The notes beneath the pieces were generated by a model. It was not told the DNA's origin and ran no database searches. It saw nothing but the letters and a program-made list of their open reading frames with translations. From an uncultured Candidatus Saccharibacteria bacterium (GTDB lineage Bacteria; Patescibacteriota; Minisyncoccia; Phycocordibacterales; CALRHW01), in contig CAYMIL010000003.1 of the NCBI GenBank assembly GCA_964390845.1, positions 4,425 through 68,424 of the forward strand: 64,000 bases of DNA, read 5' to 3'. The number at the start of each line of letters is the position of its first letter. Positions within the stretch are counted from its first letter, which is position 1. Shown piece after piece: positions 8,928-56,356 of the stretch. Both the position numbers and the translations under genes were made by a program.

Positions 8928-9013
8928 GAAGTGACTCCTGTTTTTGTGGTGCGATTCTACAATCTTTGTATATCAGAATGGATGAGGAGTCAAATGTATG
9001 TATAATATGTCTC

Positions 9014-10435
9014 ATGGATACGTTTTATGTCACAACCCCGATTTACTACGTCAACGACAAGCCCCACATTGGCCATGCGTATACCACGCTGATTGCCGAT
9101 GTCTATGCGCGCTTTTATCGTGAGCGTCTTGGTGCCGAAAATGTCTTTTTCCTTACGGGTACAGACGAGCACGGTGCGAAAGTTGCACAGTCTGCTGAAA
9201 AAAATGGCATCGCTCCTCAGGAATTTACCGATAAAGTCTCTGCGGAATACAAAGCAGTGTGGAAGATGCTTGGTATTAGTTATGACGAATTTTTCCGAAC
9301 AACAGATCCTCGGCACAAAGAAACGGTGCAGGCATTTTTACAGAACCTCTATGACAAAGGCTATATCTACAAAGCGGCATACAAGGGCACATATTGTATC
9401 GGATGTGAGAAGTTTCTTTCGTTTGAAGAGATTGTAAATGGTGCGTGCGCGCTTCATCCCAACCTCAAACTTGTTGAGCAAGAAGAAGAAAATTATTTTT
9501 TCAAAATGAAGGAGATGTCTGCGCGCGTACTGGAAAAGCTTGAGGCTGGCGCGTATTCTGTTTTTCCAGAAGAGCGAAAGAATGAAATTATTGGGAAAAT
9601 GAAGCAGGGCATCGAGGATATTTCTATTTCTCGTGTTGGCGTGACATGGGGCGTGCCGGTGCCGTGGGACCCAGCGCACACGGTGTATGTGTGGGTTGAT
9701 GCGCTTATCAACTACTATTCCGCAACTCGAATTTATCCGGGACGTGAAGGTTTTTGGCCACCAACATTGCATCTTATGGCAAAAGATATTTTGTGGTTCC
9801 ATGCACTTGTCTGGGAGGGTCTACTTCTCGCACACGATCTTGAATTGCCAAAAACAGTCTTTGCGCACGGTTTCTTTACTATCGACGGGCAAAAGATGTC
9901 GAAATCTTTGGGCAATGTTATCAATCCTGTTGATATCGTGACAGAATATGGTGTCGACGGCGCGCGATATTTGCTTGCGAGCGCGTTTCAATTTGGAAGT
10001 GATGGTGATATTTCACTCGCGCGATTCAAAGAAAAATTTAATAGTGATTTGGCAAACGGTATTGGTAATCTCGTATCGCGTATTGCCAAGCTCGCGGAAA
10101 AATTGGAAGTAAATCCGGCAGACATAGAGCGTGCACGGTTGCTTGCAACACAAGACGAGACAATACTGCGTCATTTTGAGTCGCATCGACCAGATGAAGC
10201 GCTTCGGTATGTGTGGTCAAAGATAGCGGTCCTTGACGCGCGCATGGCGACAGATAAGCCGTGGGAGATTGCAGATACGGGCACACTTTCACAGACACTC
10301 ACAAGTTATATTGAATCGTTGATTACCATTGGCACACTCTTGCGACCGTTCTTACCTGAGACATCAGAAAAGATTCTCAGTATCTTTACTGCACAAAAAA
10401 TCACAAAACCTGAGCCATTGTTTTTGAGAAAATAG
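9014..10435 (+). CDS. metG: methionyl-tRNA synthetase (short form)
   Basis: HIGH motif PHIGHAYTT and KMSKS motif KMSKSLGN; TATAAT box 8 nt upstream of the ATG (near-leaderless). Confidence 0.9.
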   Translation: MDTFYVTTPIYYVNDKPHIGHAYTTLIADVYARFYRERLGAENVFFLTGTDEHGAKVAQSAEKNGIAPQEFTDKVSAEYKAVWKMLGISYDEFFRTTDPRHKETVQAFLQNLYDKGYIYKAAYKGTYCIGCEKFLSFEEIVNGACALHPNLKLVEQEEENYFFKMKEMSARVLEKLEAGAYSVFPEERKNEIIGKMKQGIEDISISRVGVTWGVPVPWDPAHTVYVWVDALINYYSATRIYPGREGFWPPTLHLMAKDILWFHALVWEGLLLAHDLELPKTVFAHGFFTIDGQKMSKSLGNVINPVDIVTEYGVDGARYLLASAFQFGSDGDISLARFKEKFNSDLANGIGNLVSRIAKLAEKLEVNPADIERARLLATQDETILRHFESHRPDEALRYVWSKIAVLDARMATDKPWEIADTGTLSQTLTSYIESLITIGTLLRPFLPETSEKILSIFTAQKITKPEPLFLRK

Positions 10436-10447
10436 CTGTGGTATACT

Positions 10448-10630
10448 TGGGGCGAACCAATGAACCGGCTGACACCGGTGAGGTGAAGAAAGAACGCCCC
10501 ACGGGCAAGTAGACTCTTCCGGCCCTGCTCCGACAAGCAGATAATCGAGCAAAAAACAGGGTGGCACCGCGATAAAATCGCCCCTGCGAATTTATTAACA
10601 CTAATGAATTCGGAGGGGTGTTTTTATTTC
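10448..10630 (+). promoter_or_regulatory. T-box riboswitch leader (Asp specifier candidate) controlling aspS
   Basis: T-box sequence AGGGUGGCACCGCG at 10558-10571; antiterminator AGGG[UGGCACC]GCG-auaaaau-CGCCCCU; alternative terminator CGCCCCUGCGAAUUUAUU/AAUGAAUUCGGAGGGGUG plus U-run at 10579-10629; Stem I base UGGGGCG/CGCCCCA (10448-10454/10495-10501); GAC-A in the loop of the ACCGG/CCGGU hairpin (10469-10474). Confidence 0.8.
10579..10629 (+). terminator. T-box terminator hairpin with U-tract immediately upstream of aspS
   Basis: About 17-bp imperfect stem, loop AACACU, then UUUUUAUUU; shares its 5' arm with the antiterminator. Confidence 0.75.
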
Positions 10631-10646
10631 TCCGAACACATGTGCC

Positions 10647-12041
10647 ATGGAACGAACATATATAAAAGATTTGCAGAATAACAAGGGAAGTGAGGTCCGC
10701 ATTTCTTGTTGGGTTGAAGTGCGTCGAGATCAGGGGAAAATGGTCTTTTTTGATTTTCGTGATATGACCGGCAAAGTGCAGGGTGTGGTGCTTCCGGGCA
10801 ACACCACCGCTCTTGAAGCGTCGCGCGAGATTCGTGCAGAATGGGTGCTTGATATTACTGCAAAAGTAAACGAACGGCCAGAGAAAAATAAGCAGGCAGA
10901 CAAGCAAAACGGTGACATTGAGCTTGAGGTGCTTGGTATTGCAGTGCTCAACAAGGCAGACACACCTGTGTTTGATGTTTCGACAGACACACGCGTCGTC
11001 GGAGAAGACACACGCCTTGAGTATCGCTACCTCGATTTGCGCAGTGATCGTATGCAGAAAAACATTCGCAACAGACATCGCGTTATCAAGGGTATTCGCG
11101 ACTACTTAGACGCGGAAGGATTTATTGAAGTTGAAACACCTATTTTGACGAAATCAACGCCGGAGGGTGCGCGTGATTATGTGGTGCCATCTCGCATTGA
11201 TCAGGGTAAGTTTTACGCTCTTCCGCAGTCGCCACAACAGTACAAGCAACTTCTCATGACATCTGGTGTTGAAAAATATTTTCAGATTGCCCGATGTATG
11301 CGCGATGAAGACACACGCGGCGACCGTCAGCCAGAATTTACTCAGCTCGATATCGAAATGAGCTTTGTGAAAGAAGAAGATATTTTGCAACTCATCGAGG
11401 GAATGCTTATCAAGCTTGTGCAGACGCAGTATCCTGAAAAAAGGATTCAGGCGATTCCGTTTCCACGTATCACCTACAAAGAAGCGATGGAAACGTATGG
11501 TAGTGACCGACCAGACATCCGCGAAAACAAAGAAGATCCAAACCTACTTGCATTCTGCTGGGTCGTGGATTTTCCATTCTTTGAGAAAACCCCAGAAGGT
11601 GGTTGGACATTTACGCACAATCCATTTTCTGCTGCAAAGCCAGAACACCACGAGCGTCTCATGAAGGGTGAATCAATCGGGGATATTGTCGCGGCTCAGT
11701 ACGATATCTGCCTCAATGGTTATGAGATCGGTGGTGGTTCGATTCGCAACCATGATCCTGAAGCGCTCATCAAAGTGTTCGAGATTATGGGATATCCGCG
11801 CGAAAAGGTTGAGCAAAATTTCGGCCACATGCTTCATGCGTTTCGCTCTGGCACACCACCGCATGGCGGTATTGCATGGGGTCTTGATCGTCTGATGATG
11901 CTTTTGCAAAACGAAGCATCAATCCGTGAAGTGATTGCGTTTCCAAAAACAGGAGAAGGTCGCGACCTCATGATGAAATCTCCGTCCGATATTTCACTCG
12001 AGCAGTTGCGGGAGCTTGGTCTTTCGGTAAAAAAGCAATAA
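10647..12041 (+). CDS. aspS: aspartyl-tRNA synthetase (compact, lacks the GAD insertion domain)
   Basis: Class II motifs (FRDE-like QLDIEMSF, GGSIRNHD, GLDRLMM); OB-fold N-terminal domain; 464 aa. Confidence 0.9.
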   Translation: MERTYIKDLQNNKGSEVRISCWVEVRRDQGKMVFFDFRDMTGKVQGVVLPGNTTALEASREIRAEWVLDITAKVNERPEKNKQADKQNGDIELEVLGIAVLNKADTPVFDVSTDTRVVGEDTRLEYRYLDLRSDRMQKNIRNRHRVIKGIRDYLDAEGFIEVETPILTKSTPEGARDYVVPSRIDQGKFYALPQSPQQYKQLLMTSGVEKYFQIARCMRDEDTRGDRQPEFTQLDIEMSFVKEEDILQLIEGMLIKLVQTQYPEKRIQAIPFPRITYKEAMETYGSDRPDIRENKEDPNLLAFCWVVDFPFFEKTPEGGWTFTHNPFSAAKPEHHERLMKGESIGDIVAAQYDICLNGYEIGGGSIRNHDPEALIKVFEIMGYPREKVEQNFGHMLHAFRSGTPPHGGIAWGLDRLMMLLQNEASIREVIAFPKTGEGRDLMMKSPSDISLEQLRELGLSVKKQ

Positions 12042-54292: not shown

Positions 54293-56356
54293 ATGGCAGA
54301 CGAAAAGAAAAAAGGAGGCTATACAGCCGAATCCATTTCCGTCCTCGAAGGACTTGAGCCTGTACGAAAGCGTCCGGGTATGTACATCGGCACCACGGGT
54401 CCCGATGGTTTTCATCATCTCATCACAGAAATTTTCGATAACTCCCGAGACGAGGCGATGGGTGGTCATGCAAACAACATTGAAATTGTGTTGTTGCCGA
54501 ACAATCGCGTACGAGTCGTAGACAACGGCCGAGGAATTCCTGTCGACGTACACAAGCAGACAAAAGTGTCTGCGCTTGAGACAATCATGACAACGCTCCA
54601 TGCCGGAGGAAAGTTTGGTGGTGATGGATACGCGGTGTCTGGAGGTCTTCACGGTGTGGGTGCGTCTGTGGTAAACGCGCTCTCTATTTTCATGAAAGCA
54701 GAGGTCCACAAAGACGGTGGATACTACATGCAAGAATACAAGCAGGGAAAGAAAAAAGCTGCCGTAAAACGCATTGGCTCAACATCATTCAACGGCACCA
54801 TTATTTCATTTGAGCCGGATGAAGAAATTTTTGGAAAGCAGACTTTTGGTTTTGATCGTATCGTCAACCACATGCGTCAGCAAGCGTATTTGGTAAAAGG
54901 ATTGCGTATCTCTGTCATTGATGCTCGAGCATTTGAAAAAGATATTCCAGAAGGCACCACATACCTTCGTGATTTCTTTGTTGAGAAGGGGGTTGATGCG
55001 CCATCACAAACATTCTATTTCGAAGGAGGTATTCTTTCGATGGTTAAGTTTTACAATCAAACACTCAAACCAATTCATAAAAATATCTTCTACATCGAGA
55101 AGATGACCAATGAGCATGAATCTGTGGAGGTGTCGCTTCAGTATGTCGACGACATTTCAAGCAGAATTCTTGCATTTGCAAACAACATCTACAACTCTGA
55201 AGGCGGTACCCATGTTACGGGCTTTAAGACCGCGCTTACACGAACACTCAATACATACGCCCGAAAAAATAACATTGTTAAGGAAAGTGAAGACAACTTT
55301 ACTGGCGACGACGTTCTCGAGGGTTTGACAGCTGTTGTTTCTGTAAAGCTACGAGAAATTCAGTTTGAAGGACAAACAAAAGCAAAGCTCGGTACTGTCG
55401 ACGCGCGTGGTGCTGTAGAAACTATTTTTGGCGATGCGTTTACATATTTCCTCGAAGAAAATCCAGACGATGCTCGGGCGATGATTCAGAAAGTATTACT
55501 CGCTCTTAAGGCTCGAAAAGCGGCGAAGGCGGCAAAAGAAAGCGTTCTCAGAAAAGGTGCTCTTGAGGGCATGACACTTCCTGGAAAGCTTGCTGATTGT
55601 CAGACAAAAGACGCTTCAGAATCCGAGCTCTTTATTGTGGAGGGAGATTCTGCGGGTGGTACCGCAAAGTCCGGTCGCGATCGTCGCACACAAGCCATTT
55701 TGCCATTGCGCGGAAAAATCCTAAACATCGAACGCGCCCGCCTCGACAAAATGCTTGCGTCTGAGCAGATTAAAAATCTTGTTGTTGCACTCGGTACGGC
55801 AATTGGCGATACCTTCGATATTTCAAAACTCCGCTATCACAAAATTGTGCTCGCAACAGATGCCGACGTCGACGGTGCACACATCCGTACACTCATCCTC
55901 ACGTTGCTGTATCGTTTCTTTAGACCACTTATTGACGGTGGGTATGTATATATTGCTCAGCCACCACTCTACAAAATAAAGAAAGGTAAGGAGATTATCT
56001 ACGCATATACAGAAGAAGAAAAAAATCAAAAGATCGGAAAGGATATTTCTGCCGACGATATTATGGAGGTCGATAGCGGAGATGAGCTTGAGGCCGATGA
56101 GGAAGAGACTGGTGCAAAAAGCAAAACTGCTCGCAAAGACAAAATTTCTATCCAGCGTTATAAAGGTCTTGGTGAGATGAACTCAGAAGAGCTCTGGGAG
56201 ACGACAATGGATCCAAATCGCCGTATTTTGAAGCAGGTTACTATCGAAGACGGTGCCTCTGCGGATAAGGTGTTTGATATTCTTATGGGTACCGACGTCC
56301 CGTCCCGAAAGTCATTCATCCAATCAAACGCAAAGAAAGCTACTATTGATATTTAA
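54293..56356 (+). CDS. gyrB: DNA gyrase subunit B
   Basis: GHKL ATPase motifs, TOPRIM EGDSAGG, C-terminal tail; 687 aa. Confidence 0.9.
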   Translation: MADEKKKGGYTAESISVLEGLEPVRKRPGMYIGTTGPDGFHHLITEIFDNSRDEAMGGHANNIEIVLLPNNRVRVVDNGRGIPVDVHKQTKVSALETIMTTLHAGGKFGGDGYAVSGGLHGVGASVVNALSIFMKAEVHKDGGYYMQEYKQGKKKAAVKRIGSTSFNGTIISFEPDEEIFGKQTFGFDRIVNHMRQQAYLVKGLRISVIDARAFEKDIPEGTTYLRDFFVEKGVDAPSQTFYFEGGILSMVKFYNQTLKPIHKNIFYIEKMTNEHESVEVSLQYVDDISSRILAFANNIYNSEGGTHVTGFKTALTRTLNTYARKNNIVKESEDNFTGDDVLEGLTAVVSVKLREIQFEGQTKAKLGTVDARGAVETIFGDAFTYFLEENPDDARAMIQKVLLALKARKAAKAAKESVLRKGALEGMTLPGKLADCQTKDASESELFIVEGDSAGGTAKSGRDRRTQAILPLRGKILNIERARLDKMLASEQIKNLVVALGTAIGDTFDISKLRYHKIVLATDADVDGAHIRTLILTLLYRFFRPLIDGGYVYIAQPPLYKIKKGKEIIYAYTEEEKNQKIGKDISADDIMEVDSGDELEADEEETGAKSKTARKDKISIQRYKGLGEMNSEELWETTMDPNRRILKQVTIEDGASADKVFDILMGTDVPSRKSFIQSNAKKATIDI

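Follow-up and report, generated by a model that had tools for sequence, protein, structure and literature searches.

A putative tRNA-Asp-responsive T-box of reduced architecture upstream of aspS in a patescibacterial genome

The spacer between metG and aspS in the window (the whole 64-kb stretch of DNA analysed here) contains a leader at 10456-10629 which is very probably a T-box of reduced architecture, responding to tRNA-Asp and controlling aspS by transcription attenuation; we would give this reading, drawn from the sequence, a probability of about 0.85. In its architecture, the leader is a new variant that stands outside both of the described classes of T-boxes. The binding of the tRNA, the sensing of its charging and termination in vivo are attributed to it by homology.

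Genomic context

The window belongs to a scaffold of 212,778 bp from an ENA metagenome assembly. Two genes flank the leader: metG (8966-10435) on its 5' side and aspS, the putatively regulated gene (10647-12041, with its ATG at 10647), on its 3' side, separated by a spacer of 211 nt; aspS and the parts of the leader lie on the (+) strand. The product of aspS is a bacterial-type AspRS of 464 amino acids without the GAD insertion, which matches the NCBIfam model NF001750 with 612 bits, in two stretches, and contains the Pfam families tRNA_anti-codon and tRNA-synt_2. No terminator of its own follows metG, so read-through transcripts toward aspS are possible. The host genome is a Paceibacteria-like member of the Patescibacteria. 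The 160 closest aspS loci all come from patescibacterial MAGs or metagenome contigs, in agreement with the reduced-genome lineage supposed in the preliminary description of this DNA. The 80 closest loci among GTDB species representatives correspond to Nomurabacteria, Paceibacterota, Parcubacteria and MAGs labelled 'Saccharibacteria', and their AspRS are at most 78% identical to that of the window.

The 3' half of the leader and the mode of control

The exact T-box sequence AGGGTGGCACCGCG / AGGGUGGCACCGCG is found at 10558-10571. The 13-mer GGGTGGNACCGCG has a single exact occurrence in the 64-kb window, where about 0.008 would be expected by chance according to our own arithmetic, and the leader exactly matches the conserved T-box sequence AGGGUGGNACCGCG, which covers A1, the 7-nt bulge and A2. 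The antiterminator extends over 10558-10585 and is delimited by its sequence, by the alignment to the Rfam T-box model RF00230 and by the covariation of its two helices, A1 and A2, among relatives. A1 pairs AGGG (10558-61) with CCCU (10582-85) and A2 pairs GCGAU (10569-73) with AUCGC (10577-81); between them, the bulge UGGCACC (10562-68) begins with the UGGC (10562-65) that is complementary to the 3'-GCCA of the tRNA. Folded alone, this structure reaches -7.0 kcal/mol. A second T-box-like motif, GGGTGGTACCGCA at 55654, has one mismatch to the 13-mer; it lies inside the gyrB frame, at the EGDSAGG motif, and was rejected.

The competing structure, predicted by folding and by its equivalents in relatives, is an intrinsic terminator with its U tract (10579-10629). 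Its hairpin (10579-10620) comprises 18 bp, 7 + 11 around a single G/G mismatch (strands CGCCCCU/AGGGGUG and CGAAUUUAUUA/UAAUGAAUUCG, loop ACAC), with a stability between -24 and -30 kcal/mol according to where its ends are set, and the U tract UUUUUAUUU (10621-10629) follows it directly, 17 nt 5' of the aspS ATG. A single segment serves as 5' strand in the terminator and as 3' strand in the antiterminator, so that the two structures are mutually exclusive; the whole leader folds to -45.7 kcal/mol in its terminator form and to -27.3 kcal/mol in its antiterminator form, a gap of about 18 kcal/mol. The expression platform is thus the terminator/antiterminator pair that had been proposed, and the T-box sequence, the antiterminator, the terminator, the U tract and the GAC hairpin were all found where the preliminary description had placed them. 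A consensus scan whose rules exclude the loop and the stem of this terminator called no terminator.

Several levels of control may be considered for such a leader. One possibility is that it acts on translation, or on both translation and transcription, as the actinobacterial class II ileS T-boxes with an ultrashort Stem I do on translation (PMC7583486, PMC12990946, PMC7778990). Indeed, all the described T-boxes that carry their specifier in a hairpin loop are translational (PMC7583486, PMC7778990, PMC12990946), the T-boxes known to possess a truncated Stem I are translational and not transcriptional (PMC7778990, PMC12990946), and binding at equilibrium would suit an element devoid of elbow contact. 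Nevertheless, the alternative helix of the window is the G+C-rich hairpin of 18 bp followed by UUUUUAUUU, and the same design was found in 18 of the 18 relatives checked, where a hairpin starts in the antiterminator 3' strand, ends at a U run and precedes the next ORF by 20-60 nt. Moreover, no Shine-Dalgarno sequence occurs in or beside the terminator hairpin, the GGAGGGG of its 3' arm being about 30 nt away from the ATG. Control of translation therefore seems very improbable, and transcription attenuation is the preferred reading.

The 5' half of the leader

An extended -10-like element, TGgTATACT (10439-10447, with the hexamer TATACT at 10442-47), can be read in the sequence upstream of the leader and puts the likely start of transcription near 10453-10456, at the base of Stem I. 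A TAnnnT hexamer is found 13-15 nt 5' of the C-stem in eight of the nine relatives that contain Stem II; the consensus scan detected no full -35/-10 promoter.

Stem I is ultrashort (10456-10484) and is defined by the RF00230 alignment and by double-sided changes among relatives, which affect pairs of both its C-stem and its 5-bp helix. The C-stem pairs ACC (10456-58) with GGU (10482-84) and leads into a canonical K-turn (ACC-AAU-GA ... GA-GGU), made up of the bulge AAU (10459-61) and of the tandem G.A pairs formed by GA (10462-63) and GA (10480-81), which aligns to the GA motif of RF00230 and is kept in most relatives. Above it, the 5-bp helix ACCGG (10464-68)/CCGGU (10475-79) closes the hexaloop CUGACA (10469-74) at the apex of the hairpin 10464-10479, and this loop displays the putative Asp specifier GAC (10471-73) followed by the conserved purine A10474. 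Among relatives, Stem I can be parsed in 20, and in these GAC-A or AAC-A stands at the equivalent position of the loop. The 74 positions that RF00230 devotes to the distal part of Stem I are reduced to 4 nt, and the platform formed by the AG bulge and the distal loop is absent. The very short Stem I, its apical GAC specifier and the missing distal platform had already been recognised in the preliminary description, which had overlooked three points: Stem II and the S-turn it contains, the IIA/B pseudoknot, and the lack of a Stem III.

Stem II (10485-10519) aligns to its counterpart in RF00230, including the GAA and AGUA elements. It consists of a lower helix, GAAGA (10485-89)/UCUUC (10515-19), in which four of the five pairs show double-sided changes in relatives, of an S-turn (loop E) composed of AAGAA (10490-94) and AGUAGAC (10508-14), whose AAGAA and GUAGA are nearly invariant among relatives, and of an apical helix, GCCC (10496-99)/GGGC (10503-06). 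It is followed by the Stem IIA/B pseudoknot (10520-10540), where Stem IIA, CGG (10520-22)/CCG (10530-32), is aligned by RF00230, and Stem IIB, between the loop CUGCU (10525-29) and AGCAG (10536-40), is deduced from covariation. The place of Stem III is occupied by the purine-rich 17-nt linker AUAAUCGAGCAAAAAAC (10541-10557), which folds to 0.0 kcal/mol and forms no hairpin, as is also the case in nine relatives. The 19 positions of Stem III in RF00230 are replaced by 4 nt, and its flanks AAUCGAG and AAAAAC are retained without the hairpin.

Relation to the described T-box classes

RF00230 aligns end to end with the leader at 10451-10588, with an E-value of 1.6e-5 when the spacer is searched and of 0.0032 when the whole 64-kb window is. 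The model fits well at the K-turn, at Stem II with its GAA/AGUA, at Stem IIA and at the antiterminator. The leader reaches 31.6 bits where the gathering score is 93, a low value due to the absence of the distal Stem I platform and of Stem III, and at the Rfam gathering thresholds no T-box is called in the window nor in 18 related loci. The match anticipated in the preliminary description is consequently significant by its E-value and far below the gathering score. Likewise, the word 'canonical' used there suits the 3' half of the leader and does not suit its 5' half. That the leader belongs to the T-boxes is nonetheless borne out by the end-to-end alignment and by its recurrence in 21 relatives.

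The T-box features present are the T-box sequence, the competing terminator, the K-turn, the matching specifier with its purine, the correspondence between UGGC and G73, the S-turn of Stem II, as well as the pseudoknot. Among the features of class I, as represented by RF00230, the distal Stem I platform, Stem III and a score above the gathering threshold are absent. Those of class II are present as regards the specifier in a terminal loop above a K-turn, the S-turn of Stem II, as well as the IIA/B pseudoknot, and absent as regards the Shine-Dalgarno sequestrator, Stem III, an Ile specifier before ileS and an actinobacterial host. By most of its defining features and by its predicted mechanism, the leader is thus a genuine T-box, whose function is deduced from this resemblance.

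The closest known relatives are the class II ileS T-boxes, for which structures are available from Mycobacterium tuberculosis and Nocardia farcinica (PDB 6UFG/6UFH, listed in PMC12990946) and whose specifier loop has been assigned to the Stem I hairpin loop by the TBDB (bioRxiv 10.1101/2020.06.17.157016). They share with the window's leader a basal K-turn, a few base pairs and a terminal loop that displays the specifier with its purine, some 16-20 nt from the 5' end, the lack of an elbow platform, the purine string of the Stem II S-turn, a compact IIA/B pseudoknot and a UGGN bulge. They differ by a Shine-Dalgarno sequestrator where the window has an intrinsic terminator, by an AUC specifier before ileS instead of an Asp specifier (also Asn in relatives) before aspS, by their occurrence in Actinobacteria rather than in Patescibacteria and by their length to the end of the antiterminator, about 167 nt compared with about 130 nt. 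In addition, the ileS T-box of M. tuberculosis has a Stem III (PMC11297988), a hairpin missing from the window.

The class I T-boxes (RF00230; for instance those of Bacillus subtilis tyrS and glyQS) have in common with the leader the T-box sequence, the A1/bulge/A2 structure opposed to a terminator, the K-turn and the specifier with its purine; as in most non-Gly members of this class, Stem II and the pseudoknot are present and the controlled gene encodes an aminoacyl-tRNA synthetase. Contrary to class I, the leader has no S-turn side of the specifier loop, no AG bulge, no distal loop (74 positions) and no Stem III. It may therefore be described as a class II decoding module combined with a class I terminator, without Stem III.

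The matching tRNA

A tRNA-Asp(GUC) is encoded on the window's scaffold about 4.5 kb outside the window (L162 17427-17502, L162 being the stretch of this scaffold that reaches 10 kb beyond the window start). It has the acceptor stem GCGGUCG/CGACCGC, the discriminator G73, an anticodon loop CUGUCAC and no encoded CCA. Its anticodon GUC can pair with the specifier GAC and its 3'-GCCA with the bulge UGGC, as predicted beforehand for a tRNA-Asp carrying G73; a discriminator at odds with UGGC, which the preliminary description had named as a refutation, did not turn up. The window itself contains no tRNA-Asp, neither tRNA-Asp nor tRNA-Asn was detected in the 120 related loci, out of 160, that were scanned for tRNAs, and the tRNA-Asn of the window's genome was looked for and not found. 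The UGGC bulge is present in all 19 relatives with a GAC or a clear AAC specifier; the two relatives with a different or unclear specifier, L024 and L034, have UGGU.

Relatives, covariation and reduction

The same kind of leader precedes aspS in 21 other contigs of Patescibacteria. Within a sample made up of aspS loci only, a motif screen combined with the covariance model R1 recovered it in 18 of the 160 related loci, either directly before aspS or before a short ORF followed by aspS, and seven further look-ups of AspRS relatives of L005 added three T-boxes and four loci without one. R1 is a bootstrap model built from six hand-parsed, trimmed seeds and serves as a search tool, not as a curated family model; the hand-parsed seed of equal lengths was used because MAFFT, applied to the full-length leaders, put Stem II and the pseudoknot one column off register.

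Stem II is present in 12 leaders, including that of the window. In the ten relatives aligned to R1, 93.5% of the cells are paired, compared with 39-52% in slid controls, and 13 of the 25 modelled pairs show double-sided changes, figures that favour our own structure, to which the alignment was fitted; none of 500 shuffles reached the observed pairing or covariation score. For the IIB pseudoknot, whose segments were picked by eye in ten leaders, 96% of the cells are paired against 29-44% in slid controls and the five pairs all show double-sided changes, with strands such as CUGCU/AGCAG, UUUGC/GCAAA, CAUGU/ACAUG and UGCGC/GCGCG.

The architecture varies beyond this group. The leader of L170 has the same design and keeps a Stem III hairpin between equivalent flanks (AAUAAGU-hairpin-AAAAGU), and the hairpin was therefore lost in the branch of the window. 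The leaders of L005, L164, L014 and L104, of about 85 nt, are devoid of Stem II, pseudoknot and Stem III and are made up of a K-turn hairpin, 22-31 unstructured nt, an antiterminator and a terminator; the loop of their hairpin has 8-9 nt (ACUGACAAC, ACUAACAAC or GAUGACAA), and a compensatory change distinguishes the C-stems of L005 and L164 (AGCC/GGCU and AACC/GGUU, respectively). A Stem III-like hairpin persists in L168, which shares 93% AspRS identity with L005, and four relatives equally close to L005 have no T-box at all. These differences show that the architecture changes quickly and that the element is often lost; its presence in only about one ninth of the related aspS loci indicates that it is dispensable.

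Such a patchy distribution, in which close relatives lack the element, together with the absence of two modules held to be necessary (PMC7583486, PMC11404447), could be explained if the leader were a decaying, non-functional relic left by the loss of the platform and of Stem III. Yet, all the invariant T-box positions are intact, compensatory changes uphold six helices and the pseudoknot across AspRS that are only 53-78% identical, both the specifier and the base in the bulge correspond to the tRNA, and the terminator is kept in every copy examined (18 relatives). Since a strong terminator before an essential gene would not persist in a relic, decay appears highly unlikely, and a functional attenuator is favored. 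Even less credible is the fold of the preliminary description, a longer Stem I closed by UGGGGCG (10448-54) and CGCCCCA (10495-10501) with the GAC hairpin inside and no Stem II. This helix does appear when RNAfold folds the entire spacer to its minimum free energy without constraints, and it could form in metG read-through transcripts. However, no relative shows comparable complementarity at that position, and the -10-like hexamer and the likely start site enclose UGGGGCG. The helix would also break up Stem II, a stem with a conserved and covarying helix and S-turn; CGCCCC is the apex of Stem II, and the closing role falls to the K-turn.

R1 had no match beyond aspS in about 1 Mb of DNA from Patescibacteria, although the T-box of L024, which is built differently, escaped it as well. 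On the scaffold, R1 found no leader for metG, pheS, pheT and serS (80 kb), and Rfam likewise found none for metG, pheS and pheT. These results hint that aspS may be the only gene under T-box control.

Proposed mechanism

Transcription would begin at about 10453-56. In the nascent RNA, the K-turn hairpin would form and display GAC-A in its terminal loop, followed by Stem II, with S-turn purines that would dock on the codon-anticodon helix, and by the IIA/B pseudoknot; tRNA-Asp(GUC) would then bind the specifier. If the tRNA-Asp is uncharged, its 3'-GCCA would pair with UGGC (10562-65) and stabilise the weak antiterminator, allowing the polymerase to read into aspS. If it is charged or absent, the far more stable terminator (10579-10620) would form with its U tract and transcription would stop 17 nt before the start codon. 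This would be achieved with no Stem I platform for the tRNA elbow and with only the purine flanks of Stem III. A leader lacking Stem III might be poor at binding the tRNA's 3' end, Stem III being a hairpin that a 2020 review called indispensable for this binding (PMC7583486).

Implications for the evolution of T-boxes

In the papers searched, T-boxes are recorded from Firmicutes, Actinobacteria, Chloroflexi and Deinococcus-Thermus, as well as some Proteobacteria (PMC2494555, TBDB papers), and the class II model of the TBDB was searched in Actinobacteria only (PMC7778990). In the literature searched, no paper links T-boxes with Patescibacteria, the Candidate Phyla Radiation or Parcubacteria. 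The present leaders would extend the T-boxes to this group, and the fact that the whole family is missed at routine Rfam thresholds implies that riboswitch censuses of such genomes undercount.

The combination of a hairpin-loop specifier with transcription termination could define a T-box lineage of Patescibacteria that loses its accessory domains piecemeal, a lineage not found described in the literature searched and to which we would give even odds. A precedent of modular loss for L005, L164, L014 and L104 is provided by the glyQS T-boxes, which naturally lack Stem II and the pseudoknot; these, however, keep a long Stem I platform and Stem III, of which the minimal leaders of Patescibacteria have neither, and rely on a codon-anticodon helix made up entirely of G/C pairs (PMC7583486). 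If these elements work, they would contradict three views: that no T-box lacks Stem III, that a truncated Stem I makes Stem II essential, and that a long Stem I is required by transcriptional T-boxes for the timely capture of the tRNA. According to the TBDB paper (PMC7778990), Stem I is longer in transcriptional T-boxes than in translational ones. The fast capture of a tRNA by a co-transcriptional switch without elbow contact would then be a kinetic puzzle. The leaders, some of which lack Stem III and some of which lack Stem II and the pseudoknot too, would also offer natural deletion series for the minimal needs of recognising a tRNA and sensing its charge, in which the elements of about 85 nt, if they work, would be the smallest natural T-boxes; as short modular tRNA sensors, they are of practical interest as engineering parts.

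Aspartate and asparagine specificity

Although the organism has few regulators and lacks amino-acid biosynthesis, it would still monitor the charging of its tRNA-Asp. Four relatives, L063, L084, L097 and L104, have an AAC (Asn) specifier instead of GAC, still combined with UGGC. Genes for GatC and for a GatA of the amidase family lie on the window's scaffold, 6.4-8.1 kb past the window start, and the ten large ORFs of the window that were scanned included neither an AsnRS nor a Gat gene. GatC and GatA fit a non-discriminating AspRS acting with transamidation; in that case, some lineages would monitor tRNA-Asn through aspS, and the charging of tRNA-Asn may be what is sensed in the relatives that probably use the AspRS/GatCAB route. 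In Clostridium acetobutylicum, the aspS2-gatCAB-asnB operon is reportedly preceded by a T-box with an Asn specifier (Saad et al. 2012, cited in PMC4206432). It resembles the four AAC-bearing relatives in placing an Asn codon before an AspRS gene, contrary to the window's own GAC. The clostridial T-box has a full-length Stem I. The specifier loop of the window with its closing base, CUGACA(C), is identical to the anticodon loop of the tRNA-Asp with its middle base complemented.

Minimal and variable aspS leaders

The smallest aspS leaders were found in four related loci from other Patescibacteria contigs (L005 2345-2429, L164 615-707, L014 778-863 and L104 1064-1153). In these leaders, about 85 nt long, a K-turn hairpin with a specifier loop of 8-9 nt is joined to the antiterminator and terminator by a linker (22-31 nt) that has no structure, and there are no other parts: Stem II, the pseudoknot and Stem III are all absent from the four of them. 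If functional, these predicted leaders would be the smallest natural T-boxes. The leader architecture differs even between the members of a single AspRS clade (L165 to L170, 83-93% identical to the L005 protein). The L168 leader (752-876) has the minimal form plus a Stem III-like hairpin and the L170 leader (974-1127) has both Stem II and Stem III, while the other four loci have no leader and their trpS directly adjoins aspS.

Asn specifiers and transamidation genes

In four lineages an AAC (Asn) specifier replaces GAC before aspS (L063 ~2288, L084 ~2650, L097 ~2790 and L104 ~1085) and the bulge stays UGGC. The presence of AAC suggests that these lineages sense tRNA-Asn via a non-discriminating AspRS. 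The AspRS of the window (10647-12041) and all of its 160 relatives are only 460-480 aa long, and their match to the bacterial-type family comes in two stretches. The GAD insertion (~125 aa), which normally separates bacterial-type from archaeal-type AspRS (PMC4206432), is missing from all of these proteins.

The scaffold of the window extends beyond the window start (L162) and carries, 6.4-8.1 kb beyond window position 1, the genes of GatC (95 aa) and of an amidase-family protein of 483 aa that is probably GatA (L162 19293-21039), adjoined by a DNA ligase gene. Thus, the tRNA-dependent transamidation pathway is at least partly encoded in this genome. The same scaffold bears tandem tRNA-Met(CAU) and tRNA-Asp(GUC) genes (L162 17309-17502). 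The latter does not encode CCA, and its anticodon loop, CUGUCAC, mirrors the specifier loop of the T-box, CUGACA(C).

Two further leaders have a UGGU bulge. In L034 (191-303), the loop AAAACA provides a specifier that reads AAC, or possibly AAA, and the bulge would mismatch a G73 tRNA-Asn; an ORF of 196 aa (554-1144) lies between this T-box and aspS. The T-box of L024 (~2040-2270) is built differently, with Stem II, a pseudoknot (strands UAAGC/GCUUA), a Stem III of 7 bp and a terminator, and is followed by an ORF of 51 aa with a CxxC...CxxC pattern (2291-2446) and then by aspS. R1, the covariance model bootstrapped from six hand-parsed, trimmed leader seeds, gave no match to it.

Read-through from metG

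In the window (10436-10455), metG has no terminator 3' of it, and read-through transcripts from this gene would include UGGGGCG. This segment has two possible partners, CGCCCCA at the Stem II apex and CGCCCCU, the 3' strand of the antiterminator; therefore, transcripts from an upstream promoter might behave unlike those begun at the predicted promoter of the leader itself.

In the L070 leader, one hairpin of ~28 nt, GCCCUGCUUCGC...GCAGG, is present twice (~30-60 and ~135-165), one copy being the Stem II apex and the other lying just 5' of helix A1. This hairpin seems to be a short element that was duplicated or inserted.
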